A stretch of 64,000 nucleotides of DNA from a virus: IMG/VR virus record IMGVR_UViG_3300009527_000006, positions 1-64,000 of that record; one strand, given 5' to 3'. The number at the start of each line of letters is the position of its first letter. The first letter of the stretch is position 1. The position numbers were made by a program, and so were the translations under genes. The notes beneath the pieces were generated by a model. The model saw nothing but the letters and a program-made list of their open reading frames with translations, searched no databases and was not told the DNA's origin. Shown here in pieces: positions 41,664 through 58,545 of this stretch.

Positions 41664-42330
41664 CGCTGCAACCATTATCAGTTTTTATAACACCTAATAA
41701 ATCCCAATTATTATTATTGATGATTTTCAAATAAGATTGTGTTCTGTATGCAGAATTTCTGACTGCGCGGTTAGAATGTGTTTTGAGCCATTGTTGCCTT
41801 GCAATGATATATTCAGTAATCCATTTCTTTTCATCACCCCCATTTCTAGGAGTTTTTTCAGAAAATCGGTTTCTTAAAAAACCGAATATTTGACCTGATT
41901 GCAAAAACGAATCAAATATACATAAAATAGCTAGATTAGTCTTAAATCCTTCTGTATGAGCCCACTTCATAGCAGGAGTAAAATACTTCTCTTCAAAAAT
42001 AGTATCCTGACAATCCATCATTATACCATCTTTTTTAGAAGCAATCTTGAGAAGTTCAACGAAAGAAGCATCATTTACTAGTGGAATTTTTCCGATTTTA
42101 TCAACAAAAGGAGACAATTTATCTGCATAAATTCCCTTTTTATTGACATACAACTGAACCACTTTCTTCAAATTTCCGCCAAATTCTGTGAAACCTACGC
42201 CAAGAGTTATTTGCCGAATTCCTTTAGGACCATCAGGCAGAATAGTTATCATATCATATTTCATGTAAGGCGTTCCAGTTTCCATACATGAAAGCAAATT
42301 CCACATTTTCTTTTTTATAGAATGATTCAT
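41656..42330 (-). CDS. Chitosanase/GH46-like lysozyme (putative endolysin)
   Basis: METG..YDMITILPDG..ITLGVGFT; FDSFLQSG. Confidence 0.7.
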   Translation of the reverse strand: MNHSIKKKMWNLLSCMETGTPYMKYDMITILPDGPKGIRQITLGVGFTEFGGNLKKVVQLYVNKKGIYADKLSPFVDKIGKIPLVNDASFVELLKIASKKDGIMMDCQDTIFEEKYFTPAMKWAHTEGFKTNLAILCIFDSFLQSGQIFGFLRNRFSEKTPRNGGDEKKWITEYIIARQQWLKTHSNRAVRNSAYRTQSYLKIINNNNWDLLGVIKTDNGCSVI

Positions 42331-42348
42331 GACATTATTTAATGTGTA

Positions 42349-42666
42349 TTATTCATTGTCCTCTGAACCAGAAGATTGTTCTGCATACAGTAGATTATTA
42401 GAAACCTTTTCTAAAAGCCGCATCGTCGCCTCATGTTGCATAGGAGATTCACTGTGCATAAATCCTACATGATTTTCATTAACATCATAACCTATAATGA
42501 CGAAAGAAGACATATACTCTTTAAGAGTAGACGTTAAACTTTGCATAAATCGACTTCTTTGTGACTTGCTGCTGATTTTTCGCTTTTTAGGCATTTTTAC
42601 AACATCAGGAACCTGACTTAAAAGTTCATCTGCTATTTCATCATCCGTCTTTTCTTTCTTAGCCAT
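42349..42666 (-). CDS. Hypothetical protein
   Basis: EYMSSFVIIGYD motif. Confidence 0.65.
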   Translation of the reverse strand: MAKKEKTDDEIADELLSQVPDVVKMPKKRKISSKSQRSRFMQSLTSTLKEYMSSFVIIGYDVNENHVGFMHSESPMQHEATMRLLEKVSNNLLYAEQSSGSEDNE

Positions 42667-42785
42667 GCACATATTTATATTTTACTTGTCAAAGGTTATA
42701 TTATTTCGGTTTGGTATAATTATATAATAAAGAATCTATGCATAGATATGTCACATAACCATTACATAGATTCTTTATCAATTTA

Positions 42786-43103
42786 CTAGACAGACTCGTT
42801 AAACTGTTTTCCGTAACTCCAGTGTTTGCTGAAAATGTGATAGCTGTTAAGAATATCAACCAAGACTTCTACAGAATCTGCGGAATACCGCAGTTTATGA
42901 AATGATTTACCTCCATCGTTAAAGTGAAAGTATCCATCCTTATAGCATGTTATAATAATAGAATGATAACCGTTATCCATTAAAATAGAGTATTTTCTCT
43001 TATCTTCGGGAGAATATTTAATATCTAATTTATCTACAGTATAACCGCTATCTTTAAGTCGTTTTACTAAATAAGAGCGTGTTGTAATATTATTGGTGGC
43101 CAT
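42786..43103 (-). CDS. Hypothetical protein (paralog of the neighbouring gene)
   Basis: 105 aa ORF. Confidence 0.65.
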   Translation of the reverse strand: MATNNITTRSYLVKRLKDSGYTVDKLDIKYSPEDKRKYSILMDNGYHSIIITCYKDGYFHFNDGGKSFHKLRYSADSVEVLVDILNSYHIFSKHWSYGKQFNESV

Positions 43104-43105
43104 AA

Positions 43106-43453
43106 TTATATAATTTTCTGATTAAGTTCTAAGAGTGATTCTAAATCCACTTTCTCTGGAGATGCTATTGCAACTATAGTATCTATAACAGAATCTAAAT
43201 CCAAATCATATACTATTCTATTAGAAGCAAAAACATCAAAGGTTTCTTGATCTAGTTCCTCTTTATTGATATGATAATTAATTATAATATTATCCATATT
43301 AGGATTAACTACCGCAGTCCATACTCTAGAATCATATTTTGCATATTTAATTTCTAGTTTATTAACTATAATAGAAGCATCATCTAGTTTTTTACTAAAT
43401 TCTTCCACAGTCATTGCCCATTTTTTAGGCTTTTTGTTTATATATTTTTTCAT
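43106..43453 (-). CDS. Hypothetical protein
   Basis: 115 aa ORF. Confidence 0.65.
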   Translation of the reverse strand: MKKYINKKPKKWAMTVEEFSKKLDDASIIVNKLEIKYAKYDSRVWTAVVNPNMDNIIINYHINKEELDQETFDVFASNRIVYDLDLDSVIDTIVAIASPEKVDLESLLELNQKII

Positions 43454-43455
43454 TA

Positions 43456-44184
43456 TTACTTGTTTTTTGAAGTACAGTAAATGGTTGTGTTTGTTTTGTT
43501 AGATGCTATTATTGAGCCTATATCTAGAATTTTTATATTGACTCCTTCTTTAACGGAAAGAATTCTATCTAAAAAATCTAACCGATATACATGTTCTTTG
43601 ATAGCAAAAGAGTTATTGGACGAAATTAAAATTTTCATTCCATCTAGATGATTTTGTTTTTTATCACCGAAGAATAGATATAAATTAGAATTTTCAGTCT
43701 CTAAACCAAATTTCTTATGCTCGGATGAAAAGGAAAGTCCTTTTTTAAGTATCTGATACTGTTTCTCGTCAAGAGAAAACTCAGCTTGAATCTTTTTATA
43801 CGCAAGTAAAGAAAAGGGATTGAATGCTGGAGGAGCAACACTTGCATCAGTCAATAATCTTATTCTAAAAGAGTGATCTGCCCCACAATAAGTCAAAAAT
43901 GAAAAATTGTTAATAGTTTCTACTCGAAGAACTACCAAATCATCTGCTATACATTCCAGTGCCTGACGAAGTTTAGAAATATCTAAATTTATTTTTTCCA
44001 GACCATCTGCAAATTCTTCTAATGTGAACGTAGAGTAAAAATGAACTTCATCTATTACAGATGAATAAATGGTATATACTTGATCATTTTTGAAGAAAAG
44101 TGTTCCCATTCCGTTTCTATTGATGGCTAATAGGGGATTTATAAACTCTGTAATAGCGCGTTTTCTATTGATCTTGAATGTCAT
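43456..44184 (-). CDS. gp45: Sliding clamp (gp45-like)
   Basis: Size, two-domain beta/alpha pattern and replication context. Confidence 0.55.
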   Translation of the reverse strand: MTFKINRKRAITEFINPLLAINRNGMGTLFFKNDQVYTIYSSVIDEVHFYSTFTLEEFADGLEKINLDISKLRQALECIADDLVVLRVETINNFSFLTYCGADHSFRIRLLTDASVAPPAFNPFSLLAYKKIQAEFSLDEKQYQILKKGLSFSSEHKKFGLETENSNLYLFFGDKKQNHLDGMKILISSNNSFAIKEHVYRLDFLDRILSVKEGVNIKILDIGSIIASNKTNTTIYCTSKNK

Positions 44185-44752
44185 TTTCGCTGTTGGTAGA
44201 AGGTTCTACTTCTTTAGTTAGTTTAGCATCTCTCACTTCCTCAAGCAACTCTTTAATCATCTTTTTTATTGCCCTAAGCTCAGACAGCATACTTTTTTCA
44301 TAATCAGTGTTTTTTTCCTTTTTAGTAGAAGATGACTTATCTTGGGATGCCTCAAATCTATTATATTGAGGCATTGTGAAAGTAGCACCGCCTGAAGGAA
44401 TATTAGGATTTTGTAAAGGATTATTATACTGAGGAGGAGCATAATTCACCGGAGCATTATGATCTACAATCATATTTCCTTTTTCATCTATTCCTACTGG
44501 AACGGGAATAAAAGTTGGGGGGGTTTGCTCAATATTAACATTAAAATTTCCTACAGGATGTGACTGTATTTGCGGAATATGTGCCTGTTGAGGAATATTT
44601 CTATTAGAGCTTATAAATTTTTTCGGTGACACGTCATGGGTTCCCATAATATTATTAAGTTCACTTCTACGACTATTACTAAACAGTCTTTTCATTTCTT
44701 GTGAAGTAGAATGTGCTAATTTAGCCAAATCCATCATATCATCAGTTTGCAT
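44165..44752 (-). CDS. Pro/Gln-rich hypothetical protein
   Basis: 195 aa ORF. Confidence 0.6.
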   Translation of the reverse strand: MQTDDMMDLAKLAHSTSQEMKRLFSNSRRSELNNIMGTHDVSPKKFISSNRNIPQQAHIPQIQSHPVGNFNVNIEQTPPTFIPVPVGIDEKGNMIVDHNAPVNYAPPQYNNPLQNPNIPSGGATFTMPQYNRFEASQDKSSSTKKEKNTDYEKSMLSELRAIKKMIKELLEEVRDAKLTKEVEPSTNSENDIQDQ

Positions 44753-44781
44753 GGAGATTATTTATAAGTTAATATTAATAT

Positions 44782-44815
44782 AAAAAGGGGGAAGACGTAG
44801 GTCTTCCCCCTTTTT
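44782..44815 (-). terminator. Terminator after the ssDNA-binding protein gene
   Basis: AAAAAGGGGGAAGAC-GTAG-GTCTTCCCCCTTTTT. Confidence 0.85.
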
Positions 44816-44825
44816 TAATATCTAA

Positions 44826-45779
44826 TTAGATATTAACATCGTCATCATCATCATCATCCAAAATAAAGTCATTAAGACCATCGTCATCACCATCATCATT
44901 ATCAACAACTCTATTCTGTGTTTGAGAGCGAGAATTTGTCGAGCTATTAACAGATTCATTGGCAATAGGACCATCCTCCCCAAACCAATACTGGTCAATG
45001 AGAGATTTGAGTTCGTCTTCAGACTTTACCGCAGGAACTAATTCCAAAAGATTGTGAACTGAATTTTCAATCCTCTCGTAATCAGAAGGTGACAAATTAT
45101 CAACTGCTTTACTGTCAGCAAATTTTGAAGTAGAATAATTATTCCAATCAGCCTTTGTAGTAACACGGACAATCAGCGACCTTCCTTTAGGTGAAAGATC
45201 AAATGCCTTAATTCCTACATCATCTCCACCTAAAACTTCTTCATCAATAAGTTTCGCTAAATCACTCTTAATTTCACCAGTTTTCTTGTCTATACCAGCA
45301 GAATATTTAAGGACAACTACTGTTCCTATTTTTTGTTGTGCATCAGGATCATCGCCTTCCACTTTGTGCAAGAAGGCATTTACCAATTCATGACGCTGTG
45401 GAATCAATTTGTAACTACGCTTCATAGCATCTTCATCACCACTCTTTTTGGCTTCACTAAAAAGCTTCCATTGTAGTTTGTTGATGTAATCATTTTTTGC
45501 TTGAGTAGGATCTGCATCTGATAGAGATCTTCCTAGATAAATGTATTCAGAAGGAGTTGTCAACGTCTCAAACCCAATATCTTTATAGTTTACAAAAGTT
45601 TGATCATTTCCATCTGAATCTGTGGAACGCAAAAGTCTTACATAGTATTTGCAATTTTTCTTGAATTTCAAGATTCTTGGATCAGAATTTCCAGACCCTC
45701 CACTTTTTTCCTTTTTAAGCTTTTCTGCTTTTGAATTTCTAATTTTTTCTAATGTTTCTTCTAATGTTGGTTTTCTCAT
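44826..45779 (-). CDS. gp32: ssDNA-binding protein (gp32-like)
   Basis: DPRILK..YYVRLL; AFDLSPKG; NYSTSKF; acidic tail. Confidence 0.8.
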   Translation of the reverse strand: MRKPTLEETLEKIRNSKAEKLKKEKSGGSGNSDPRILKFKKNCKYYVRLLRSTDSDGNDQTFVNYKDIGFETLTTPSEYIYLGRSLSDADPTQAKNDYINKLQWKLFSEAKKSGDEDAMKRSYKLIPQRHELVNAFLHKVEGDDPDAQQKIGTVVVLKYSAGIDKKTGEIKSDLAKLIDEEVLGGDDVGIKAFDLSPKGRSLIVRVTTKADWNNYSTSKFADSKAVDNLSPSDYERIENSVHNLLELVPAVKSEDELKSLIDQYWFGEDGPIANESVNSSTNSRSQTQNRVVDNDDGDDDGLNDFILDDDDDDDVNI

Positions 45780-45835
45780 AATATATTATTGTTCTTATTG
45801 TTCTTATTCTAGATAGAATATCTATCCGAAAGTAT

Positions 45836-46459
45836 TTATAGTTTATTTGCCAGTATAACCTGATTTATAGTTTTTTTAAGCAATTTACTGGCAGAATATT
45901 TTGTATGTAAAAAATTTAATTGATCTTTCGTATCACCAAGATAAAGCTCATATTCTTCTGGTGGAAGATTAAGAAGTTTGGCAAAACCCTCTAGATAGAA
46001 AACGGTATATAGGTTAGTGCTTTTATTTTTAAGATGAAGAAGATAATCTGGCTGATGAACAGTAGCATAGTTTAGGTAGTCTGTCAACTTTATTTTCTTT
46101 TCTTTACAGAAATCCAGCACAAATTTTACGCATTCTGTAGTATATCTAATATTATCAGGATGATCGGTATTTTCAGATACTAGTAAGTTTACATAGCTAG
46201 AACATACTAGCATACACTTAACTGTAGAAAAATAATTCAAAGAAAAAAACTTTTTATCTTTATAAATTTTATAGGGTGCGATAAAATATGTTCTTGACAT
46301 TAGGTGAGGATGTTTTTGAAAAAACTTTTCAAGTTTTTCAAGAGCACCCTTTTTAGAATCATCTAATTTTTCATATTTTAGCAAACTTTTACATGGGCGA
46401 TCATTTGCTTCAGCAAGAGCCTCTAGGAAAAGATTGTAAATTTTTAATTTATTGTCCAT
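45836..46459 (-). CDS. Hypothetical protein (possibly gp59-like helicase loader)
   Basis: Likely start MDNKLK; adjacent to gp32. Confidence 0.5.
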   Translation of the reverse strand: MDNKLKIYNLFLEALAEANDRPCKSLLKYEKLDDSKKGALEKLEKFFQKHPHLMSRTYFIAPYKIYKDKKFFSLNYFSTVKCMLVCSSYVNLLVSENTDHPDNIRYTTECVKFVLDFCKEKKIKLTDYLNYATVHQPDYLLHLKNKSTNLYTVFYLEGFAKLLNLPPEEYELYLGDTKDQLNFLHTKYSASKLLKKTINQVILANKL

Positions 46460-46913
46460 TGTTGCGACTATACAGAAATTTATCAATATTATCAAGACTT
46501 TCAGGACCAACTAGTTCTCCACTTATAGCGATAGAATGGCCGTCTTTGAGCAAAGTTACTAATGACTCAACCACATCACTTGATAAAAAATCAAATTTAG
46601 CTCCTAGAAAAAATAAATATATTTGTTCTAAAGTTACAAGACCGTCTTTCCATTTAATATAATAAGAACAGAAATCAGTATATTTTACGAGAATATCTAG
46701 ATAAGAATAAGCATTACTGTCGTTGTCTAAAATATTACTACAATCTATATGATCCTGATTTAAAAATTTTTCTTTACTAGAAAGGTAAGTTCCGCAATAA
46801 TAAACAATTTCAGTATCTTTTGACACCGTATTTGTAAAAAATTGTAGCGTTAGTGCAAATGATTCTAACCAAGTATCAAAATCGTAGTCAGGGCAGAGAG
46901 TTTTAATTTTCAT
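46449..46913 (-). CDS. Hypothetical protein
   Basis: Likely start MKIKT after TTGACT-16-TATTCT. Confidence 0.55.
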   Translation of the reverse strand: MKIKTLCPDYDFDTWLESFALTLQFFTNTVSKDTEIVYYCGTYLSSKEKFLNQDHIDCSNILDNDSNAYSYLDILVKYTDFCSYYIKWKDGLVTLEQIYLFFLGAKFDFLSSDVVESLVTLLKDGHSIAISGELVGPESLDNIDKFLYSRNNGQ

Positions 46914-46998
46914 AATAATAGAATACAGCACATAATTCAGAAGTCAAGCGCTAAATTCAATCATTTAGATATTTTGAAGACACTACTAAATCACAAGA

Positions 46999-47087
46999 GG
47001 CGAACAAAACGGATGCAGACAACGCTCTATAAGTTGTTTGTCACATTCATAGTCTTTTATTCGCGTGTCTGATCCGAAGCGTTCGGG
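46999..47087 (+). repeat. attC-like site 1 (type A)
   Basis: GGCGAAC-AAAA-CGGATGCAGACAACG...CGTGTCTGATCCG-AAGC-GTTCGGG; two extrahelical bases. Confidence 0.88.
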
Positions 47088-47113
47088 CAATACGCATCCA
47101 CACAAAATCACGC

Positions 47114-47554
47114 ATGTATAATAGACCGTCTAATTCTGAAGTTGCGGAAATTACTGGATACAATCTTCCTATAGAAGAAATCTCAGAATTTCCCACAGCT
47201 AAACAGCAACAAGAAGGAGGTTATATTTTGAAGTATATTGGCCGCATCTCAGATACTTGTGATACCTTCTTGAAAACTGCACATGGTAAGGTAGTTGCTA
47301 TAATATTGCTTATCCATGGAATCATCGGATTTGCTAGAGATGCATTTGATGGTGCAACATACATCTATAATGCATCTGCTCCTATGCTTGAAAGGATTGA
47401 GACTTTTGTATTTTCTCATAAGAACCAAGAAGTCTCTCCCGAATACCTAGTATTGATCCCAAAAGAAACGCACCTGACACTGCCCGTAAAAGATTGGGCT
47501 GATTTTCCGGCAGGAACCCAATTTGCGCCAGCCAGTAGCATAGATTACACATAG
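47114..47554 (+). CDS. Cassette 1 gene, membrane protein
   Basis: 146 aa, one TM segment; starts 27 nt after R'. Confidence 0.7.
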   Translation: MYNRPSNSEVAEITGYNLPIEEISEFPTAKQQQEGGYILKYIGRISDTCDTFLKTAHGKVVAIILLIHGIIGFARDAFDGATYIYNASAPMLERIETFVFSHKNQEVSPEYLVLIPKETHLTLPVKDWADFPAGTQFAPASSIDYT

Positions 47555-47633
47555 CCAACGATCCAAAATATATAAATGCAAATATTTCACAACAAACCCA
47601 TACTTTATTCAAATAATTATATTTATTAGACAT
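47382..47633 (-). CDS. Cassette 1 antisense ORF/transcript
   Basis: TATAAATA 6 nt upstream of ATG; overlaps the top-strand gene. Confidence 0.35.
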   Translation of the reverse strand: MSNKYNYLNKVWVCCEIFAFIYFGSLAMCNLCYWLAQIGFLPENQPNLLRAVSGAFLLGSILGIRERLLGSYEKIQKSQSFQA

Positions 47634-47669
47634 TTTACCTATTTATAAAGACTTTAGACTAAAACAAGA

Positions 47670-47759
47670 CCCGAACAAAGAAACTGGAGACAACAGCTCA
47701 GCATAGTTATTCTCCTATATTAGTTCTGTGTTCGCTGTGTCTCAGTTTAGACGTTCGCC
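47670..47759 (+). repeat. attC-like site 2 (type B)
   Basis: CCCGAAC-AAAG-AAACTGGAGACAAC...GTGTCTCAGTTT-AGAC-GTTCGCC. Confidence 0.88.
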
Positions 47760-47783
47760 TAACAACACACAGCCTCTACTACA

Positions 47784-48056
47784 ATGTATAAAACTCAGCC
47801 TAAATATCGGGCCATCATTCGTTTCTCCTTGGATAAGGATGAGAGTTCAAAGTTTCGCAACTCTGTTATTAGAAAACTTAGAAAAGCTAAATTCACCAAC
47901 ACAAATAAGACTGGTTCTTGGGAGACTCCATCCGCAGATTTATCTATTATTCAGTCATTAGTCTGCACCGTTATGAACGAACTAGGTAAAGTAACGAATG
48001 ACGACGGAAAGCCCGTAACATTGGACCATATGTGGATGTGCATAGATAAAGTTTAA
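47784..48056 (+). CDS. Cassette 2 gene, hypothetical
   Basis: 90 aa ORF directly after R'. Confidence 0.7.
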   Translation: MYKTQPKYRAIIRFSLDKDESSKFRNSVIRKLRKAKFTNTNKTGSWETPSADLSIIQSLVCTVMNELGKVTNDDGKPVTLDHMWMCIDKV

Positions 48057-48223
48057 TCTTCTTCGTTCCACCTAGGGTCATCATCTGACCATTCATTCCA
48101 TCCAGATTCGATTTCGTCTGAGTCTGAATTGATAACTATTTTTGTTTTAGATTCAGTATGACACCCACAGTTGCCACATACGCCGCTAATAACGACTTCT
48201 ATAGGTTGAGAATTATTTTTCAT
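48053..48223 (-). CDS. Cassette 2 convergent 56-aa ORF (CxxCxCH, acidic Trp-rich tail); not in track
   Basis: MKNNSQPIEVVISGVCGNCGCH...WNEED*; ATAAATA 7 nt upstream; stop overlaps partner stop (TTAA). Confidence 0.55.
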   Translation of the reverse strand: MKNNSQPIEVVISGVCGNCGCHTESKTKIVINSDSDEIESGWNEWSDDDPRWNEED

Positions 48224-48261
48224 AATCAGCTATTTATTGGCAGCTCTTGCTATAAACAAGA

Positions 48262-48350
48262 GGCGAACAAAACGGATGCAGACAACGCTCTATAAGTTTT
48301 ATGTCACATTCAGAGTTTAGTATTCGCGTGTCTGATCCGAGACGTTCGTC
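48262..48350 (+). repeat. attC-like site 3 (type A)
   Basis: GGCGAAC...CTGATCCGAGAC-GTTCGTC. Confidence 0.88.
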
Positions 48351-48937
48351 TTATGAAATGCCACCCAGTGAGTCTGCGCTTTCTTGCCGCTACGGTGGCC
48401 GTAGAGCGGGCGTTCTGGCGTGAGTGCCAGCACTTCGCGGAGCGGGATTTCAGCCTCGCACCATTTGAAGATCATCGTTCCATTCACTTTCAGGACACGG
48501 AAGCATTCAGCGAATCCCGCCCGCAGGTCGTCGCGCCATGTCGCATCCAGAAGCCCGAAGTCGAAGGCGATGCGTCCCGTTGCCCCGGCTCCTTTATGGA
48601 AGTGCGGCGGATCGAATACCACATGCCAGAACGACTCATCAGGGAACGGCATGTTTCGGAAGTCCACCACCATATCAGGCGCGACGGTTTTCGGGGTGCG
48701 CCCGATGGTTCCCGGCGTTCCCACGTCGATGATTCGCGTGCCTTGGCGTTTGTCCACATACAGGGCGCGGTCATCCTGTTTATCGAACCAGAACATTCTG
48801 GTTGAGCAGCACGCATCCAATACCGGAGGCAAAGACGAACAAGTCGCTGCATGCAACCCGCTTTCTGCGTGCTGTTGGCGCGTTAATGTGAAGAGGTCAT
48901 CCATAGGTGTATCGGTGTATTGTGTCAGCGGGTGCAT
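48317..48937 (-). CDS. Cassette 3 SAM-dependent methyltransferase, antisense to the array
   Basis: VLDACC..MFWFDK, VFDPPH and GFAECFRVLK motifs; GC-rich; start in attC4, stop in attC3. Confidence 0.85.
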   Translation of the reverse strand: MHPLTQYTDTPMDDLFTLTRQQHAESGLHAATCSSLPPVLDACCSTRMFWFDKQDDRALYVDKRQGTRIIDVGTPGTIGRTPKTVAPDMVVDFRNMPFPDESFWHVVFDPPHFHKGAGATGRIAFDFGLLDATWRDDLRAGFAECFRVLKVNGTMIFKWCEAEIPLREVLALTPERPLYGHRSGKKAQTHWVAFHKTNVSDQTREY

Positions 48938-48953
48938 GAGCTAGGCGTTCGCC
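48834..48953 (+). repeat. attC-like site 4 (type C)
   Basis: GACGAAC-AAGTC-GCTGCATGCAACCCGC...GCGGGTGCATGAGC-TAGGC-GTTCGCC. Confidence 0.85.
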
Positions 48954-48962
48954 TAAAAACCA

Positions 48963-49217
48963 ATGCACTCATCACAAACTAATTCGCAGATGATAATCGC
49001 GCACATGCTAGCCAATGATAACGGAGCCATTTTTCATTTTGAGGACTATAGATTCAATGTTCGTCCTGAAGATCGAGTCACTTCCAGCAATTGGCCTAGT
49101 GGTATAACATTGCACATTAGACTTTCTAGCACAGGGCTGAGCGCAGCTTCTTACGAGAACGAGACAGTGCTCGGTGAATATGTGGATGAAAGAGGAACTC
49201 CCATTTTGCCTTATTAG
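48963..49217 (+). CDS. Cassette 4 gene, hypothetical
   Basis: 84 aa ORF starting 10 nt after R'. Confidence 0.65.
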   Translation: MHSSQTNSQMIIAHMLANDNGAIFHFEDYRFNVRPEDRVTSSNWPSGITLHIRLSSTGLSAASYENETVLGEYVDERGTPILPY

Positions 49218-49459
49218 GAATTATTACTTGGATCATTCGGAATTGCATGGCCGAATCTCAGCACTTCACCATTGTCATATAGATAGGCCATTCCACGAAT
49301 TCCAAAAGGACCATTATACTTACCTTTCTCATTCTGTATTTTTATGTTCTCGTGCATAGTCCATCTTCGCCAGATTCCAATAGCTTCATCATACGGAAGT
49401 GCCTCTGGATCTGGGTATTTGGTTAAGTCTATTGGGTTGTCTAAATTTAACATATTCAA
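49214..49459 (-). CDS. Cassette 4 convergent ORF
   Basis: 81 aa; ATAAGTA upstream; stop overlaps partner stop. Confidence 0.55.
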   Translation of the reverse strand: MNMLNLDNPIDLTKYPDPEALPYDEAIGIWRRWTMHENIKIQNEKGKYNGPFGIRGMAYLYDNGEVLRFGHAIPNDPSNNS

Positions 49460-49493
49460 AGCTACTTATTCGTAGTCAAATGCTAAAACAAGA

Positions 49494-49583
49494 GGCGAAC
49501 AAAGAAACTGGAGACAACAGCTCAGCATAGCTATTCTCCTATATTAGTTCTGTGTTCGCTGTGTCTCAGTTTAGATGTTCGCC
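49494..49583 (+). repeat. attC-like site 5 (type B)
   Basis: Near-identical to site 2; GGCGAAC...GTTCGCC. Confidence 0.88.
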
Positions 49584-49598
49584 CAACCTCACCACACC

Positions 49599-49784
49599 AT
49601 GTCTATTATAAAGAAACCTAGTTCGTGCGTATTTTGCAGATCTGCACTGATTAAAGGTCCGATTAAGAGAGATCGTAATTTAAATGAAACTATTGAAATG
49701 AAGAGTGTCGTTTATATTTGTGAGCAATGTAATTTTGTTCACGAATTTAATATTCATACTACTAAAAAATCTAAGATGAAGTAG
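49599..49784 (+). CDS. Cassette 5 zinc-ribbon protein
   Basis: CVFC...CEQC. Confidence 0.6.
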   Translation: MSIIKKPSSCVFCRSALIKGPIKRDRNLNETIEMKSVVYICEQCNFVHEFNIHTTKKSKMK

Positions 49785-49935
49785 TAGACACGAAACATGC
49801 AAGCCCATCACATTGAGCATTCCACATTTCATCCAGAATTCTATCATTATTTTCCTGTTCTTCTTTGGAAAGTCTCATCCAATGACACTGCTCCACTTCT
49901 AACCATTCACGTATCTTTGCTTTTATCCATTGCAT
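49771..49935 (-). CDS. Cassette 5 convergent 54-aa ORF; not in track
   Basis: MQWIKAKIREWLEVEQCHW...TTSS*; ATAAGTA 9 nt upstream. Confidence 0.5.
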   Translation of the reverse strand: MQWIKAKIREWLEVEQCHWMRLSKEEQENNDRILDEMWNAQCDGLACFVSTTSS

Positions 49936-49974
49936 AGTAGTCAATACTTATGAAGCTAATAAACAGAAACAAGA

Positions 49975-50063
49975 GGCGAACAAAACGGATGCAGACAACG
50001 CTCTATAAGTTTTATGTCACATTCATAATTTTATATTCGCGTGTCTGATCCGAGACGTTCGGG
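49975..50063 (+). repeat. attC-like site 6 (type A)
   Basis: GGCGAAC...GTTCGGG. Confidence 0.88.
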
Positions 50064-50219
50064 TAAAACAGAACATAAACACCACAATGAATGAATCTAC
50101 GTTAGTTGATTGCGCTAAATGGTTATATGAAAAGCAGCAAGAGAACCTAAAAGCCGGAAAGAATCTACTTTGGCAGCCACATATAATAACCGTTCTTTTA
50201 AACTTACAAAAATCTAAAG

Positions 50220-51446
50220 TCATACTTTTAAGATATAAACTCTCGATTTTTTGTTAAATTCCTGCTTCACAGACGGGCTAACCAAAGTCGTTTCCGACAA
50301 TGGTGAACTCCCATCTCCACAGGCTTGAATTCCCGAAGAACTTTCGGTATAAATTTGTTTCAGATTCAAACTCGCATTTAAATCTCTATCTATTTTCATA
50401 TCACACATTTTACATTCAAATACTCGGTCTGTCAACTTCAAATCTGAATTTTTCCATCCGCAACATGAACATAATTTAGAACTGGCGTAGAAAGTATCTG
50501 CGAAGACAACTTTTCTATTATTCCATTTCGCTTTATATTCAATTTGGCGACGAAATTCATAAAGTCCTACGTCACTGATAGCCTGAGCCAAACAGTGATT
50601 TTTCAACATATTGCTTACTTTCAAATCTTCCAACACAATTACATTGTTTTTCTGTATTATGTTAGAAGTGATTCTATGTAAGCAATCTTTACGAATATTT
50701 GATATGTGATAATGTAATTTTGCTAACTTTTGTTTTGCTTTTCCATAATTTTTACTTCCTTTTTTCTTTCTTGATAATTGTTTTTGTTTGCGTTTTAGTC
50801 TCTTGAGATTTTTCTTTAATGCTTTTGGATTTTCATAAGTTGTCCCATCTGAGCAAGTAGCTAAAGTTTTAATACCTAAATCAATTCCTACTACCTCATT
50901 CTTGGCGTTAGAATGCTCTCTGTCAGGTGTCTCTACTTGAACTGATACAAACCACTTACCCGCACGTTTCGAGACTGTAGCAGACAGTATTTTACAATCT
51001 GTTGGGATGTAATCTTTCTCGGATAATTTGAGTTTGTCGATTCGTGGTAGCTTAATGTAATCAGATTCAACTGAAATCGCGCCGTCTAGTCTGAAGGATT
51101 GCTTTTCGTTTTTCTTAGATTTAAATTTTGGAAATCCTTTCTTACCTTTAACTTTCTTTTTACAACGAGTGAAGAAATTTTGAAATGCTTTATCACAATC
51201 TCTTAACGCATTTTGTGGAGAAGTCTTGCTTGAATTATACATCCAAGGAACATCTGTCTGTTTTAGCTTGTTTAATTCTCTATGAATCTCAATAGCATTT
51301 TGAATTTTCTCTTTCTTATCAAATTGTTCTTTCTTTTTAGCTAATGCCCAATTATATGCCCATCTAGCGCAACCAATATGCTGTAATAACAAGGTTTGTT
51401 GCTTGTTATTTACATCTAGCTGAACTTTATAGGCGCGGAGAATCAT
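50220..51446 (-). CDS. tnpB: TnpB RNA-guided endonuclease
   Basis: GIDLG, VLEDL, CSCCG/CKMC and DRDLNAS: RuvC D-E-D intact. Confidence 0.95.
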   Translation of the reverse strand: MILRAYKVQLDVNNKQQTLLLQHIGCARWAYNWALAKKKEQFDKKEKIQNAIEIHRELNKLKQTDVPWMYNSSKTSPQNALRDCDKAFQNFFTRCKKKVKGKKGFPKFKSKKNEKQSFRLDGAISVESDYIKLPRIDKLKLSEKDYIPTDCKILSATVSKRAGKWFVSVQVETPDREHSNAKNEVVGIDLGIKTLATCSDGTTYENPKALKKNLKRLKRKQKQLSRKKKGSKNYGKAKQKLAKLHYHISNIRKDCLHRITSNIIQKNNVIVLEDLKVSNMLKNHCLAQAISDVGLYEFRRQIEYKAKWNNRKVVFADTFYASSKLCSCCGWKNSDLKLTDRVFECKMCDMKIDRDLNASLNLKQIYTESSSGIQACGDGSSPLSETTLVSPSVKQEFNKKSRVYILKV

Positions 51447-52308
51447 TTTAATCTTTCTAAACAAATATCATAATACTCTTTTTCTTTTTCGATGCCGATA
51501 AACTGACGATTGAGATTTTTGGCGGCAACCAGAGTTGTTCCCGAACCAGCAAAAGGATCGAACACCAAATCCTCTTTATTTGAGATAGACTTCACCAAGT
51601 CTTCCATCATATTCAACGGTTTTTCACATGGATGTTTGTCTTTTCTTTGCGAGACTATTTCATATTCAATTACATCTTCAAATGAAGATAGCGATAACGA
51701 ATCAAATTTTCGTTTGGATAATTTAATACCTAAATCTCCTCTAATTTGGGAAGAAATTTTGGAGATGGAAAGCATCTACCACATTCCCAATTTGATACTT
51801 GACCACCATTATTAACGTTTCCATAAGCACCCAATATTTCAGTAAGCTCTTTTACCGATACCCCCTTAGAAATGCGGGCATTCTTAATGTCATTTGGATA
51901 AGAATCTTGTGAAAAATAAATTATTCTTTCTGATGCTGGATATGGTCGTCTAAGGGAATTTTTATTACACTTATTTTTCCAACCCTCACTCCCCTTATTT
52001 GGAAAAGTTTTCTTCCACACAATTTCAGATTGGAAATTGAAATATTGATTTATCAGGACGGCTAAAAATGGAGCCAATGATGGCTTACAAAAAACGTAAC
52101 CACTACAAGTATTTTTCATCTTCGGTTTAAGAATTTTGAAAAAATAATCAAACCATTTTAAAAATTCAGTATCGTTATCATGTTCATTGTCCCAAGTGTG
52201 CTTTTTAACATTGTGATAAGGTGGATCGGTGACAAGGATATCCACGCTTCCATCTGGAATGTCCTTCATCAATTCTAAACAGTCGCCATGCCAAATTTCT
52301 TGTTTCAT
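51443..52308 (-). pseudogene. Beta-class N4/N6 DNA methyltransferase with internal Cro/C1 HTH, frameshifted
   Basis: GDCLE..DPPY (51730-52308) and HPCEKP..DPFAGSGTT (51443-51775) are in different frames; one extra T near 51732 gives LEEILGIKL. Confidence 0.8.
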
Positions 52309-53336
52309 TCCATCGCCTCCTTTTCTTTCTTTTTACGATTCTGTGAGCTAATCATACCCAATCCTTCTCTAATTAGATACAGGCGACCAGTCGAAGTTTT
52401 TAACTCTTTTGCTACGCCTCTCCAAGTTTGATGTTTATCAAACAAATCGTGCAGTTGTTTTACTGTAATATCTGAACGCTTTTTCCGTAAAATTTGCTGA
52501 GATAGACACTCTAAATATAATTCATACTTTCTATCCAAATACACTTTAGCGTTTGAGTATATTGGTCTTAATATGTTTTGAACTAACTCGACCCCCGCCG
52601 AAGATATGCAGCAAGTTTCTGAATCTCCCTCTCCATATTTTGATAGGATTTTTGCGCGACATTTGCTATACGAAAGAATATACTCTTGAAATTTCTCAAT
52701 AACAAGCCTATTTCCAACAAGATTAATTGTCCACACCCAAGATTTTTTATATTTGGGTTCAAGCGTTTTAGAAATGCAGCCATCACCGTCAAATATGCCT
52801 CGCCAAAAATGACAGTGTAAATCCTTTGGAATTAAATTTAACGGAGGAATAAAGCTAAAAGATTTTCTCGGTAAAATACCAAATTTAGCCAAATCATTGC
52901 ATATTTTTCTGTTACCAATTACAATTCGACACGACTCAAATATTTTACTATTATCACCCCCTTCAAAAGAGGGCGAACTTCTACATATTTTAATTGGATG
53001 CGCCGAACGGCAAAATTTCTTAAATTTTTCTAAGTGCAACAAATCTGACTTTTTTAAACCTATATTCAATCCTCCATAATCGGTTACGTTGCCGTCGGCG
53101 GCAATGAATCCAAGCCAATAAGCCTTATCTTCTGTGTCAATTTTTTCAAAAATAGAATCGTCAATAGTATATTTAGAGTTATTTTTAATTTTGATACCCC
53201 TTTTTTTGGCTTCTCTGGTGCAGCATTCGCTACTTAATCCGTAAACAGCCGCCGCCCTTTGTGCAGAATCCCCGTTTACATATAGATTAATCATTCCGTC
53301 CTTTTCTTCTTGTGTAATAGTGCGTCTCATATACAT
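52305..53336 (-). CDS. LAGLIDADG endonuclease
   Basis: AYWLGFIAADG and FWRGIFDGDG motifs; LDRKY. Confidence 0.9.
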   Translation of the reverse strand: MYMRRTITQEEKDGMINLYVNGDSAQRAAAVYGLSSECCTREAKKRGIKIKNNSKYTIDDSIFEKIDTEDKAYWLGFIAADGNVTDYGGLNIGLKKSDLLHLEKFKKFCRSAHPIKICRSSPSFEGGDNSKIFESCRIVIGNRKICNDLAKFGILPRKSFSFIPPLNLIPKDLHCHFWRGIFDGDGCISKTLEPKYKKSWVWTINLVGNRLVIEKFQEYILSYSKCRAKILSKYGEGDSETCCISSAGVELVQNILRPIYSNAKVYLDRKYELYLECLSQQILRKKRSDITVKQLHDLFDKHQTWRGVAKELKTSTGRLYLIREGLGMISSQNRKKKEKEAME

Positions 53337-53352
53337 ATATTTACACTAAAAA

Positions 53353-53913
53353 TCACTCTTTTTCACAAAAATCTGATAAAACTTCATCATCGGGATAGAT
53401 TTCTGTAGTCACCTCTTCCACCTTTTCAATTCTAACTCCATAGGAATTAAAATAAGACAAAAGATAATTAAAACAAAATCTTGATAATCTATCTTTATGC
53501 TCAATTAAGACTACATCAATTTCTTTCTTTTCTACTAACTCAAAAAGTTTCTGCAATTTCTTGCGATTGTCGTTCATTCCTGAACCAACTTCATCAAAAA
53601 CAGCAACAATAGAATAACCACGCTTCAATGCCTCTGTAGTCATTCTGCCGACTTGTCTTTCTAAATCACCTTTAGTCTTCTGTTCATGTGAACTAACGCG
53701 ACAATAGATAGCCACACGCTTACCATCTGTTACTTTAACAGGTTCTACATAGATTCCCGCCAATTTCTCAATATCGGCTCTGTAATAGCGTCTATGACCA
53801 CCTTTTGTATGGAATGGCGTTAATTTGCCTTCTCGCTCCCAATTTCTAAGAGTTTCGTCGGAAACGCCTAAAATGGACGCAGCATCACTAATTGATAGAA
53901 TCTTTTTATCCAT
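53353..53913 (-). CDS. tnpA: IS607 serine recombinase TnpA, apparently C-terminally truncated
   Basis: MerR-like HTH (GGHRRY), YCRVSS, DEVGSG, DRLSRF; lacks the usual ELVED..FSARLYG helix. Confidence 0.9.
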   Translation of the reverse strand: MDKKILSISDAASILGVSDETLRNWEREGKLTPFHTKGGHRRYYRADIEKLAGIYVEPVKVTDGKRVAIYCRVSSHEQKTKGDLERQVGRMTTEALKRGYSIVAVFDEVGSGMNDNRKKLQKLFELVEKKEIDVVLIEHKDRLSRFCFNYLLSYFNSYGVRIEKVEEVTTEIYPDDEVLSDFCEKE

Positions 53914-54082
53914 TTTTGTCTATCAATCCTTTCTGTTGAAACAACCTAAACCATTCGTCATAGATTCGTTGAAATTCCTCTACGGTTGGAACTTCATCTA
54001 ATTCAAACGGAATATCATGGATAACTCCATCATCGGTTTCAAATTCTGTTGCTGTAACTCTTGTAATCATTTTTGGCTTCAT
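53906..54082 (-). CDS. 58-aa acidic ORF at the IS left end; not in track
   Basis: MKPKMITRVTATEFETDDG...KNG*; overlaps the tnpA start. Confidence 0.6.
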   Translation of the reverse strand: MKPKMITRVTATEFETDDGVIHDIPFELDEVPTVEEFQRIYDEWFRLFQQKGLIDKNG

Positions 54083-54148
54083 ATATATTTACACTAAAAG
54101 TTTAGATTTTCTACGAAAAAAGTGAAAATATTTTAACTTTCTTTAGAT

Positions 54149-54177
54149 ATTTTAGATTATCGGGCAACTGTTGTCAA
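54149..54177 (-). promoter_or_regulatory. Sigma70 promoter at the IS607 left end
   Basis: TTGACA-17-TAAAAT directly inside the GG core. Confidence 0.7.
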
Positions 54178-54273
54178 CCCTCGGAAAGTTGTGGTTACTA
54201 TTTGTTTCCTGTTTTGCGATATTATCCACTGCTCTGATCACCGAGTTTATAAAACAAGATGGGTATAAGTTGT

Positions 54274-54531
54274 TTAAGTCCAGCCTAAATAATGAACACA
54301 CAAAAGCATCGGAACCACCCCCATCACAAACAACAAAACACATAAAATAATCAACCATCCTAATGCCATGAAGAGGCATTCTACAAAAGCCTTAAACTCA
54401 CCATCAAACCCGAACAAAACGGATGCAGGCAACACCTCTGGGCTGTCTGTCGTATTATTCATAGTATTTTCGTTCGGTGTGCCTGATCCGAGACGTTCGC
54501 CTTCTGCTAATTTAGTTTGTTTTTTCATCAA
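54274..54531 (-). CDS. Antisense membrane ORF reading through attC7
   Basis: 85 aa; ATAAATA upstream; alternative ATG (MNNTTD) inside the attC7 loop. Confidence 0.5.
   Translation of the reverse strand: MMKKQTKLAEGERLGSGTPNENTMNNTTDSPEVLPASVLFGFDGEFKAFVECLFMALGWLIILCVLLFVMGVVPMLLCVHYLGWT
54409..54501 (+). repeat. attC-like site 7 (type A variant)
   Basis: CCCGAAC-AAAA-CGGATGCAGGCAACACC...GGTGTGCCTGATCCG-AGAC-GTTCGCC; compensatory stem changes. Confidence 0.88.
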
Positions 54532-54699
54532 AAGCTATTTATGAAATAATATTATTAATTCAACCAGCATAATAATAACCATGTTTAACTACCTAAAGAC
54601 TAGCTTGTGTCAATTTTGTAAAGGAACCACTGACCCATCCACAAAGAAAGAGATTTAAACTCTTCATTTGAGATAAAGTGTGTTATTTATATTTTTGAG

Positions 54700-54790
54700 G
54701 CTCTATAAGTTTTATGTCACATTCATAGCTTAGAACTCACTATGTCTCAGCGTAAACTTACCATTCATGTCTGCGCTAGGCGTTTGCCTT
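54700..54790 (+). repeat. Degenerate attC remnants
   Basis: GCTCTATAAGTTTTATGTCACATTCATAG (type A loop) and GCTAGGCGTTTGCCT (type C end). Confidence 0.6.
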
Positions 54791-55134: not shown

Positions 55135-56490
55135 TTAGGTTGTCATAAATTCTTCCATCGAGAATTTCTTTTTCAATATACTTGACCTAGAATCTTCATA
55201 TGATTGCTCAGTATCTTCTTCTTCAAAAAATCTCAGTGTGCTATAATCAATATTCAAGTATCCCCCGCCATTGAGAGCACCGTCTCTAGATTTCTTACCC
55301 TTAACTAATACTCTGTTAAGTTCACGGTCTTCATCTGTTTGTGACATGACTGTAAGATTATCAAAATCGCCTAGCATTGAATATGAACCAGCCATATTAT
55401 CCAAGTCAGCAGAATTATTTCGATGTCCGTCTCTATTGAGTTGTGCAGGAGTTAATAGAGGGCATTCAAAAATATAACTGAGCCCTCTTACTTCTTGAGT
55501 AATATACTGAAATTCGTCGTGCTTAGGAACATTGCTTTTTGTAGATTTACATAGAGTAATATAATCCAGTATTATCACCGATGGTTTGAAATTTTTCTTT
55601 CTTTCTAATTTTTTAATAAAGGATTTAATGTTAGTAGGAGTCACTGATTTAGCCGCGAACTCTTTGATTACTAATCTAGAAGTTTTATCAGAAATAAAAT
55701 CATCCACATACTCTCTATACTCTAATAGCCTGTCTCCTATTTCTCCTAGAGCAATACCCGTTAACATACCAGAAATTCTACGAGCATATCTTTTTTCACT
55801 CATTTCTAAAGTTATAATTACTACATCCTCATTCTGTCTGAGAATGTTAGTTCCAATGTTTCCCACCAAAAGTGATTTTCCGACATTAGTGGAGCCAGCT
55901 ACGCCATATATTGCTCGCCCTTCTTTAAACATTCCTCCACCAAATGCTTCATCCACTATCTTATATCCGGTGCTTAGAAAAACATCCTTTTCAGTTAAAA
56001 TAGATTCTACCCTACTTCTTTCGGCAAAATATTCCAACCCTAGATTATCTACTAATGAAATATTAGATATAGTTTCTTGTTCAGTTTGAAAATCATCTAA
56101 ATCTATTTCTTGTTTTTCTGTCTTATCATCAATAGCCTTTTCTAGAAGATTTTCTGTTTTTCTCTGCTTTATAAAATACTCTGCATTAGCAAGCAATTCG
56201 TCTTCATTACATTCATCCGCAATATTTTCATTTTTTATAAGATCAATCGCTTTTTTAAGATGTTCTTTATTTTTAGTAGTATTAAACCGGGTTTTTAATT
56301 CTGTAAAATTAGGAACTGCGGACCTTTCTACATAAAAATCTTTAATAGTCTGTGCTATTGCAGAGAAGTTTTCGTTTTTGAAAATATCTGCTCCAATATA
56401 TTCTATGCAAGAACCTAGTAATATTCCATCTTTTTTGAGAAGATTCTTCATAAGAATCTTCTCAAAAAAATCTAAATCAATTTTGCTCAT
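55135..56490 (-). CDS. gp41: Replicative helicase (gp41)
   Basis: AGSTNVGKS, ITLEMSE, LDYI and AQLNRDG motifs. Confidence 0.93.
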   Translation of the reverse strand: MSKIDLDFFEKILMKNLLKKDGILLGSCIEYIGADIFKNENFSAIAQTIKDFYVERSAVPNFTELKTRFNTTKNKEHLKKAIDLIKNENIADECNEDELLANAEYFIKQRKTENLLEKAIDDKTEKQEIDLDDFQTEQETISNISLVDNLGLEYFAERSRVESILTEKDVFLSTGYKIVDEAFGGGMFKEGRAIYGVAGSTNVGKSLLVGNIGTNILRQNEDVVIITLEMSEKRYARRISGMLTGIALGEIGDRLLEYREYVDDFISDKTSRLVIKEFAAKSVTPTNIKSFIKKLERKKNFKPSVIILDYITLCKSTKSNVPKHDEFQYITQEVRGLSYIFECPLLTPAQLNRDGHRNNSADLDNMAGSYSMLGDFDNLTVMSQTDEDRELNRVLVKGKKSRDGALNGGGYLNIDYSTLRFFEEEDTEQSYEDSRSSILKKKFSMEEFMTT

Positions 56491-56499
56491 ATGTATTTG

Positions 56500-56793
56500 C
56501 TAGACTATAGCATATGTAACCTCTAACAGTCTAGAAGAATCTTTAGATAGGTATTTCATTTCTACCCATTTTTCAAAATAATCTCCGGTAACTTGATCTT
56601 CCAGTTCGGTAGGCTGGTCAGTATAAAAATTACCGCTTTTATATAATTTATATAATTGTCCAGCAGTGACTACTAATTTTGCCCCATTAGCATCTACTGT
56701 TTCTATAGCAGGGGTAGATTCATCAATATGAAAATATTGAATCTTAGGTTTGTCTACAAACATCGAAGTCTTTTTTATTGTGACACGAATCAT
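56500..56793 (-). CDS. Hypothetical protein
   Basis: 97 aa ORF between UvsX and gp41. Confidence 0.6.
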   Translation of the reverse strand: MIRVTIKKTSMFVDKPKIQYFHIDESTPAIETVDANGAKLVVTAGQLYKLYKSGNFYTDQPTELEDQVTGDYFEKWVEMKYLSKDSSRLLEVTYAIV

Positions 56794-57809
56794 ACGTTAT
56801 CTGGATTTAATGCAAACATCTTATTGCACATAGTTTTGAAAGACGCATCTTCTACTAGTGATTGCATAAGATTATCAGTTTCTTCTAGCTCTTTGCGTCT
56901 AAAAACTTTGTCATTGCCAATGAGTTTATACCATCCTTGCTTTTCTGAATAGATATGTTTAGTTTCAAGTGCAAGGTCAAATATTCCAGAGTATTTAGAA
57001 ATTCCATCATCAAAACTAACGGTTACTGGAAAATCGGATTTTTCTCTGACATATCTAGAAAATTTTGATTTCAATACAAAATCAAATCCAGTCAATTCAG
57101 AATCAACCTTCTTTTGTCGTTTTCCAATATTCCACAACGTATGTCCAGCATATTCTGCCCCTCTTCCTCCAGAAGCCTTTTCTTCAGGAAACATGTCCAT
57201 TGTTTGGTAGCTATGATTAATTACTATACAAGTAATGCCCTTGAAATTTATCTGTCCATTAGCAATTCGGAATACAGATTTCAACGCCTTTGCTCTAGTG
57301 AAATCAGCTTTATCATTTTCGTTCTTTGCATCCTCTACTTCTTTCGCACTGGCTAACATACCAATACTATCGACGCAAATAAGAACCTTATCACCGACTT
57401 CTATATCAGTAACTAAATTAGCCAAATCACTCTTCCACTGTTCTACAGTAAAAATAGGTCTTCTGTCAAAATTTTCACCCGGACGAATATCTATTCCTAC
57501 TCCTTCAAAATATGAATTAGGTGAGCCGAACTCCGAATCATAAAAAATGATGAGATTATCTTGGTCCTTATACTTCCTTTGGAACGACTTCATTGCTTGA
57601 ATCATTAGATTAGTTTTGAAGTGCTTTGGTGGAGCAGCAATCATAACTATCCCAGCCGGAAGACCTTTATCGAAAGATCCTGATATTGCTAAATTAAGAA
57701 TAGGAACATCAAAAGGTATAAAATTTTCAGATTCCCAATAATTAGATTTCTCTAATATTTTTTTATCAATTACAGTATTGGCACGAAGTTTATCAAAAAG
57801 TTTTGACAT
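56790..57809 (-). CDS. uvsX: RecA-like recombinase UvsX
   Basis: AAPPKHFKT, YDSEFG, DSIGMLAS and KSVFR motifs. Confidence 0.95.
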   Translation of the reverse strand: MSKLFDKLRANTVIDKKILEKSNYWESENFIPFDVPILNLAISGSFDKGLPAGIVMIAAPPKHFKTNLMIQAMKSFQRKYKDQDNLIIFYDSEFGSPNSYFEGVGIDIRPGENFDRRPIFTVEQWKSDLANLVTDIEVGDKVLICVDSIGMLASAKEVEDAKNENDKADFTRAKALKSVFRIANGQINFKGITCIVINHSYQTMDMFPEEKASGGRGAEYAGHTLWNIGKRQKKVDSELTGFDFVLKSKFSRYVREKSDFPVTVSFDDGISKYSGIFDLALETKHIYSEKQGWYKLIGNDKVFRRKELEETDNLMQSLVEDASFKTMCNKMFALNPDNV

Positions 57810-58239: not shown

Positions 58240-58545
58240 TTATGCAAGAAAATAATCTTCTTTCTTTAGAGAATCTTGTCTATCATACTCTTGCCTAACA
58301 CCTATTTTGAAATTCATTACTAAATTATCTTTTTCAAATTGCTCTCTTTGAACTGCTTTTATAAGTTTAGTAACATCATTAGAATACAATCTATACAATT
58401 CTTGCTTAGAAATCCACCGACCCTCAGAAAAATCATCAGATATAATTTCTATATCACGATTTTCAAAAACACTCTGATACGATCTATATAATTCAGCAGA
58501 GTATTTGTTTTTAATACTTAAAAATTTCTGATATAGGTGCTTCAT
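58240..58545 (-). CDS. Hypothetical protein
   Basis: 101 aa ORF. Confidence 0.5.
   Translation of the reverse strand: MKHLYQKFLSIKNKYSAELYRSYQSVFENRDIEIISDDFSEGRWISKQELYRLYSNDVTKLIKAVQREQFEKDNLVMNFKIGVRQEYDRQDSLKKEDYFLA

Follow-up and report, generated by a model that had tools for sequence, protein, structure and literature searches.

Integron cassettes are regarded as promoterless and as relying on the Pc promoter of the integron platform. The question raised by the locus described here is why cassettes carried by a phage should have, on the strand opposite to their canonical genes, a sequence that resembles a phage late promoter. The locus is an array of attC recombination sites at 46998-54790 of a 64,000-nt stretch of DNA (the window, meaning the whole stretch that was analysed), which is the start of the 92,025-nt IMG/VR contig IMGVR_UViG_3300009527_000006 (32.7% GC, estimated to be 35% complete). 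By its profile matches the source genome is a T4-like myovirus.

The reading that we favour, with a probability of about 0.6, is that these are two-sided cassettes with T4-type late promoters for small late proteins, held in a cluster of attC sites lacking integron-integrases (CALIN). In this model an integrase-free attC array would sit in a T4-like myovirus with the top strand of the integron opposing local phage transcription. The AT-rich cassettes 2, 4 and 5, and perhaps cassette 1, would each combine a promoterless top-strand open reading frame (ORF) with a convergent ORF on the phage-sense strand, and the TAA(A/G)TA element 6-9 nt upstream of the bottom ORFs would act as a T4-type late promoter. 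The resulting mRNAs would be leaderless or nearly so and would encode small late proteins, while the RNA hairpin of the bottom-strand attC, together with a U-rich tail, would insulate neighbouring cassettes.

A two-sided cassette design

Every phage gene on either side of the array (41656-46931 and 54808-64224) lies on the minus strand, so the bottom strand of the integron is the sense strand of the phage. Phage transcription across 41.6-64.2 kb thus runs along the bottom strand, a point on which the first-pass annotation of this DNA was silent. The top-strand cassette ORFs are the sole plus-strand genes within this 22.6-kb minus-strand block; judged from this layout they may be poorly expressed in the phage, with the bottom ORFs following phage logic.

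Cassette limits were set at G|TT, which places cassette 1 at 47082-47753, cassette 2 at 47754-48344, cassette 4 at 48948-49577 and cassette 5 at 49578-50057. The top ORFs of these four cassettes begin 15-32 nt after the G|TT boundary: C1top (146 aa, 47114-47554, starting 32 nt past the boundary), C2top (90 aa, 47784-48056), C4top (84 aa, 48963-49217) and C5top (61 aa, 49599-49784, or 69 aa if read from 49575 inside R'; it has a double CxxC), all on the plus strand. The bottom ORFs start with an ATG 38-42 nt from R'': C1bot (83 aa, 47382-47633), C2bot (56 aa with a CxxC, 48053-48223, its ATG 40 nt from R''), C4bot (79 aa, 49214-49453) and C5bot (54 aa, 49771-49935), all on the minus strand. The overlap of stop codons that had been noticed in cassettes 2 and 4 is 2 nt in each (48053-48056 and 49214-49217); the ORF pair of cassette 5 overlaps by 14 nt and C1bot overlaps C1top by 173 nt. 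Public gene calls include C2bot, C4bot, C5bot, C1top, C2top and C4top, and omit C1bot and the 69-aa form of C5top.

Each of the four bottom ORFs follows the motif on the minus strand: TATAAATA at 47640-47647, 6 nt ahead of the ATG at 47633; ATAAATA at 48231-48237, 7 nt ahead of 48223; ATAAGTA at 49463-49469, 9 nt ahead of 49453; and ATAAGTA at 49945-49951, 9 nt ahead of 49935. A fifth copy, ATAAATA at 54536-54542, stands 7 nt ahead of the ATG at 54528. Checked on the minus strand, these five positions and the spacing of 6-9 nt to the ATG agree with the first-pass annotation. The fifth copy lies past attC7 as claimed, but it is not in a cassette of the two-sided design, and its 84-aa ORF (54274-54528, minus strand) starts to the right of attC7 and reads through it. 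The tblastn matches of this ORF were rejected as translated attC sequence and do not reflect protein homology.

The description of the top genes as promoterless agrees with the scans. No TAA[AG]TA is placed before any top-strand ATG in the array, a scan before the top ORFs found no strong sigma-70-type site, and no promoter was recognised for C1top. The leaders between R' and the top ATG (47082-47113, 47754-47783, 48948-48962, 49578-49598 and 50058-50086) are C/A-rich with almost no G or T, and no Shine-Dalgarno sequence is seen in them.

The motif as a late-class signal

An AT-rich motif in AT-rich DNA could arise by chance, and the genome has 33% GC; in addition ATAAATA is not over-represented (43 copies, where about 86 would be expected over the two strands). 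However, the placement of the motif is not random. The motif was scored wherever TAA[AG]TA ended 4-11 nt before an ATG. Outside the array, 35 of the 97 called genes have it at their start. The background is 1.0-1.3%, from 1 occurrence among 78 non-gene ORFs (50 aa or longer) and 5 among the 493 remaining ATGs. Within the array (46950-50300) it was found at 4 of 19 first-ATG ORFs of at least 50 aa (binomial probability of about 1e-4 at a background rate of 0.013), and all four are attC-proximal, on one strand, with starts 38-42 nt from R''. An ORF of the same minimum length follows 40 of 113 TAAATA (35%) and 8 of 34 TAAGTA (24%), whereas 1-5% of occurrences of control hexamers of like composition precede such an ORF, so AT content is not sufficient to account for the motif. 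Chance was rejected on these hexamer controls and ORF-start counts, and we consider it scarcely credible.

The cassette motifs lie 24-26 nt from R'', and what separates each of them from the conserved attC flank differs in sequence between cassettes. Because these sequences are unalike, the regular spacing points to constraint and not to duplication of a module.

The first-pass annotation held that the motif and its spacing match those of the capsid and tail genes, and this agrees with the genome-wide pattern. The motif precedes the capsid and sheath genes and occurs in 26 of 51 genes of the structural-rich region at 1-44.8 kb, against 2 of 30 genes of the replication module (Fisher p = 3e-5). 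Being frequent in the structural part and rare in the replication module, it marks a class of genes and is not a start context of general use. The T4 late promoter is TATAAATA and that of cyanomyoviruses is NATAAATA, and the consensus of the phage motif agrees with both (PMC2988020, PMC2984593). A position weight matrix derived from the phage starts has TAAATA as its core, in which the fourth base is A or G, and no -35 element. As with the T4-family promoters (TATAAATA, or NATAAATA in cyanomyoviruses), the same core is used on either strand and is associated with structural genes. From this pattern we infer promoter activity and late timing for the cassette copies as well.

There is one clear difference. 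Unlike T4-family late promoters, the core TAA(A/G)TA ends only 5-9 nt before the ATG (in 29 of 33 matched genes), which would imply leaderless or near-leaderless mRNAs. This proximity, together with the lack of any Shine-Dalgarno sequence seen at the phage genes, would also fit a different role, in which TAA(A/G)TA is the translation-start context of mRNAs without a Shine-Dalgarno sequence and the bottom ORFs are expressed by read-through from phage promoters to the right. Such read-through is possible since the array lies inside a 22-kb minus-strand block. However, a start context would not be expected to be specific to the structural class or to fit the T4-family late consensus, and genes of the early class instead have TTGACA-N17-TAnnnT, just as close to the ATG. 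A purely translational role is thus judged unlikely. In both promoter classes the distance from the end of the element to the start codon is 5-9 nt, for example at 39058-39555 (minus), 6856-8187 (minus) and 9727-11244 (plus). Their equal closeness to the ATG points to transcripts with little or no leader in both classes, and perhaps to the use of leaderless mRNAs throughout the phage.

Coding potential of the cassette ORFs

A codon log-odds score trained on 69 long phage genes separates real small phage genes (mean 0.33, sd 0.11) from spurious ORFs (mean -0.08, sd 0.21). C2bot (0.45), C4bot (0.29) and C5bot (0.30) fall inside the range of real small phage genes, a level reached by 0-2% of spurious ORFs, and small late proteins from cassettes 2, 4 and 5 are plausible on this basis. 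The claim of convergent bottom genes in cassettes 1, 2, 4 and 5 is therefore kept for the last three, but C1bot (-0.00) looks non-coding and is doubtful as a gene. On the top strand, C1top scored 0.27, C2top 0.14, C4top 0.16 and C5top 0.18, and the imported methyltransferase of cassette 3 scored -0.05; the lower scores of the tops of cassettes 2, 4 and 5 are consistent with a more foreign origin.

Conservation of the small ORFs, which the first-pass annotation had made a test of its proposal, was found in part. C2bot has a homologue, P0025, with 53% identity over 38 residues (E = 4e-5) and a CxxC core in common, but no homologues of C1bot, C4bot or C5bot appeared in the searches made, although C4bot is present as an exact copy of the protein on 4 contigs. 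Searches with C4bot, C5bot and C1top returned self matches only, tblastn against phages gave no match with C2top or C4bot, and an Atlas search with C4bot gave no usable lead. At E <= 0.01 neither Pfam nor PHROG assigned a family to any top or bottom ORF of the two-sided cassettes, and no paralogy was found among the cassette ORFs. The same or near-identical cassette proteins are encoded on a 126-kb and a 66.5-kb contig, and C4top belongs to a 3-member cluster at 90% identity or more, one member of which is on the 66.5-kb contig.

Another reading, which takes up an antisense idea of the first-pass annotation, is that the bottom promoters mainly produce late antisense RNA that silences the top genes, as a temporal switch or a type-I-like toxin-antidote pair, with the bottom ORFs being incidental. 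The stop codons of the convergent ORFs are indeed shared or overlapping and no terminator separates the pairs, and C1bot looks non-coding despite a perfect TATAAATA. However, the phage-like codon usage of C2bot, C4bot and C5bot and the protein homologue of C2bot argue against this, and the top genes, for which no plus-strand promoter was found, may offer little to silence. Among the cassette ORFs there was no match to a toxin or antitoxin family of Pfam or PHROG, and the pairs are convergent, not co-directional. An antisense function as the main role is distinctly unlikely in our assessment.

In base composition, the AT-rich cassettes have 33-44% GC against 57% for the imported methyltransferase cassette. 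The suggestion that these cassettes are phage-adapted and not passively captured gains support, by inference, from this GC content, the class-specific motif and the phage-like codons of C2bot, C4bot and C5bot.

Cassette 3 (48345-48947) differs from its neighbours in carrying a GC-rich S-adenosylmethionine-dependent methyltransferase gene (48317-48937, minus strand) with no late motif; the protein is one of 40 that cluster together at 90% identity or more. Its ORF starts within the stem of its own attC4 and ends nine codons past the cassette boundary, inside attC3, and close relatives stop sooner (198-199 aa versus 206 aa).

The attC array and its bacterial family

The repeats comprise seven complete hairpin elements of 90-120 nt at 46998-54501, followed by a decayed copy at 54700-54790. 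The minus-strand fold has a 6-bp GAAC/GTTC box, an unpaired spacer of 3x3 nt, a long stem and a variable loop, and two bulged bases, C and T, are on the 3' arm of the stem in DNA folds. The usual extrahelical bases of attC sites are G and T. R' reads GTTCGNN, with C and not a purine as its fourth base, which departs from the textbook GTTRRRY. Three sequence types share this structure. Type 1 comprises attC1 (46998-47087, the left end of the array), attC3 (48261-48350), attC6 (49974-50063) and the diverged attC7 (54408-54501), type 2 comprises attC2 (47669-47759) and attC5 (49493-49583), and the GC-rich attC4 (48832-48953) has a sequence type of its own. The decayed attC8 (54700-54790, the right end of the array) has a type-1 loop and degenerate arms, belongs to repeat family D3 and forms no stable hairpin. 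All eight are on the plus strand. Pattern matches identified attC1, attC2, attC3, attC5, attC6 and attC7, repeat comparison identified attC2, attC3, attC5 and attC6, folds were obtained for all seven complete sites, and attC1, attC2, attC4, attC5 and attC7 were placed in the covarying alignment.

In an alignment of 20 sites GAAC...GTT is unchanged, the share of pair cells that do pair is 90.7% (19-37% in controls with slid partners), and 8 covarying pairs show compensatory changes (28 cells changed on both sides), with a covariation score that was reached by 0 of 500 shuffles. The left-arm pattern was found in 32 viral contigs and at least 120 bacterial contigs. The bacterial arrays, with up to 12 copies per 8 kb, are from Verrucomicrobiaceae, Prosthecobacter and other Verrucomicrobiota metagenome-assembled genomes. 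Of 5 such genomes, 4 have an integron integrase whose TIGR02249 score exceeds the NCBIfam cut-off, compared to 0 of 14 control genomes. In the bacterial loci L110/L157 and L156, a minus-strand intI precedes plus-strand attC sites on one stretch, so the plus strand of the window corresponds to the integron top strand. Taken together, the alignment and the integrase linkage indicate that the repeats are genuine attC sites of the family used by chromosomal integrons of Verrucomicrobiaceae. No match to TIGR02249 at E <= 10 was found anywhere in the partial 92-kb contig. The array, with seven complete attC sites where a CALIN needs at least two with no integrase nearby, is therefore a CALIN.

Other identities for the repeats were considered. 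Miniature inverted-repeat transposable elements and the 5' leader of a conserved gene were dropped once the intI-linked arrays were found, and an Rfam scan of 44-57 kb gave no family matching the repeats. A low-GC bacterial source for the AT-rich attC types was dropped as well, as the low-GC pattern matches were all without a complete element, and neither the AT-rich type-1 loop nor type 2 turned up in exact scans of viral and metagenome contigs. Complete attC sites of this family elsewhere were found only in loci with 49-63% GC. Among the GC-rich viral contigs, L017, L022, L025 and L028 have some hybrid elements in which left and right arms of different attC subtypes do not pair; these could be products of within-loop recombination or decayed sites.

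The bacterial arrays also provide a control for the motif. TAA[AG]TA occurs within 70 nt of R'' on the bottom strand at 0 of 99 complete sites of the same family in other contigs, and each of 23 bacterial cassettes has one top-strand ORF that fills most of the cassette and begins 9-75 nt after R' (mostly 13-36). This was the check that had been proposed, whether bacterial cassettes with such attC sites lack the motif. The ACAAGA that had been noted before five R'' sites is present at attC1, attC2, attC3, attC5 and attC6 and not at attC4 or attC7. However, it is a family-wide attC feature (consensus near ACAAG(A/G)G(C/G)C) and not specific to the phage.

Cassette movement

Contigs of other freshwater metagenomes were compared with the locus over 43-58 kb, counting the covered parts of runs X2-X5. 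Natural populations differ by whole cassettes. In a contig from run X4, position 48342 continues directly at 48946, with CGTTCG common to both sides; exactly the 603-nt methyltransferase cassette is gone, and the joint falls on the G|TT of two unlike attC sites. In a contig from run X3, 48253 is joined to 49967 between two type-1 attC sites, so that cassettes 3-5 are missing. Run X4 also has a weaker joint, 47748>54491, which links attC2 to attC7 across their R' boxes and has only 21 nt on one side.

These joints bear on whether the array is mobilised by an integrase at all. The bottom ORFs could instead be ordinary accessory genes among attC-like repeats spread by homologous or illegitimate recombination. 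The type-1 and type-2 copies are 78-94% identical and alternate along the array, and the X3 joint is within 59 nt common to two type-1 copies and could be homologous recombination. The anatomy of a stem-loop plus promoter also recalls the PeSLs (promoter early stem-loop elements) of T4-type phages (PMC2839356, PMC4122927). In both cases a promoter or putative promoter comes after a stem-loop, among small variable ORFs and in a plastic part of a T4-like genome; PeSL promoters are early, and PeSLs are thought to be shuffled by homologous recombination. The stem-loop here, unlike that of a PeSL, is an attC with a G|TT crossover, and its putative promoter is of the late class. Against recombination between repeats, the indel of cassette 3 falls exactly on the R' CGTTCG boxes of two attC sites of unlike type, and the top ORFs start at the canonical cassette distance after R' as in bacterial arrays; furthermore, a top ORF placed after an attC and flanked by phage genes would amount to a cassette in circularly permuted form and not to an integrase product. 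We regard spread without an integrase as quite improbable.

Possible hairpin insulation and points against late promoters

For the late-promoter reading, the attC sites may have a second role. Folded as bottom-strand RNA, their hairpins have predicted energies of -29 to -43 kcal/mol and are followed by a UCUUGUUU-type tail, and each could be a terminator-like insulator ahead of the late motif. If attC hairpins insulate in this way, each bottom gene would need its own promoter directly behind the attC.

Several observations weigh against this reading as a whole. The attC loops of about 35-40 nt are far above those of canonical intrinsic terminators, and a terminator scan did not call the attC hairpins. 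C1bot lacks the phage-like codon signal, three of the four bottom ORFs gave no homologues in the searches made, and two of the four cassette motifs are the rarer TAAGTA variant. Homologues of the late-transcription proteins gp55, gp33 and gp45 were not present among about 30 proteins screened from this contig, estimated to be 35% complete, a screen that was not a dedicated search. Among the sequencing runs listed for the stretch there was no RNA run. Finally, a motif so near the ATG could serve translation initiation instead of, or besides, transcription.

Relation to known systems

CALINs in virulent phages, including ones with DNA methyltransferase cassettes, have already been published, along with some cassettes that have several or divergent ORFs (Qi et al. 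2023, PMC9892861). The array described here resembles them in having an attC array without intI, a phage of lytic type and a methyltransferase cassette. It differs in having putative phage promoters within cassettes and a regular two-sided design, which are not described in that paper, and goes beyond it in that the attC family is traced to Verrucomicrobiaceae integrons and that presence or absence is cassette-precise between metagenomes. Cassette-borne promoters are also known, as toxin-antitoxin and ORF-less cassettes are expressed independently of Pc (PMC13108822, PMC6557892, bioRxiv 10.1101/2023.11.21.568050 = PMC11014356). Here too a putative promoter is inside the cassette. However, known cassette promoters are of the sigma-70 type and drive co-directional pairs or neighbouring cassettes, unlike a phage late-class motif at a fixed 24-26 nt from R'' whose gene is convergent with the canonical ORF. 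What is new is the phage late-class start signal at a fixed cassette position and the regular use of two strands.

Cassettes of a bacterial attC family thus show phage base composition and a phage-specific late start signal beside attC. If the promoters work, phages would not just be ferries of cassettes but would use the integron format to stock and swap small late genes of their own, and cassettes could evolve regulatory parts fitted to their carrier. A further idea is that such dual-logic cassettes are made or remodelled in phage genomes, one strand being readable from Pc after transfer and the other read by the late machinery. This is doubtful at present. If true, a T4-like phage and a verrucomicrobial host would share one mobile cassette pool and phages would be a birthplace of integron cassettes.

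Genomic setting and the IS607-like element

Profile matches of T4-like type in the window include the gp23-type major head protein (9727-11244), tail sheath (15560-18667), large terminase TerL (19672-21840), primase (26234-27229), a gp32-like single-stranded DNA-binding protein (44826-45779), UvsX (56790-57809) and a gp43-type polymerase (58511-61069); a DnaB-type helicase of 451 aa (55135-56490) has a Pfam DnaB_C match. Capsid proteins of cyanomyoviruses are only about 30% identical to that of this phage, which is therefore without a close cultured relative, and searches for related loci with the helicase and with P0021 as queries found none. Because the attC family is restricted to loci of Verrucomicrobiota with 49-63% GC, a verrucomicrobial host, from the Verrucomicrobiaceae, is predicted for this uncultured T4-like phage of 33% GC. 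The metagenomes that are the source of the array or contain it are from groundwater and freshwater.

Cassette 6 (50058-54495) has a top ORF at 50087-50257 (plus strand) that is interrupted by an IS607-like element at about 50190-54120, as judged by ORFs, Pfam matches, contig joints and loose contig ends, and there is no bottom late motif near attC7. Genes in the element encode TnpB (50220-51464) and a serine recombinase (53353-53913), and there are also a LAGLIDADG-like ORF (52305-53336), an ORF of 58 aa and an N6_N4 DNA methylase gene divided between two reading frames (51730-52308 and 51443-51775). In other runs, contigs lack internal parts of the element (51015>54118 and 52349>53423). A 37-nt repeat (TTTTAGTGTAAATATAT..) occurs at 53335-53371 and 54083-54119, directly ahead of two genes of the element, and contains TAAATA 1-3 nt from the ATG. 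This suggests that the cargo of the IS-like element also uses the phage-type signal.

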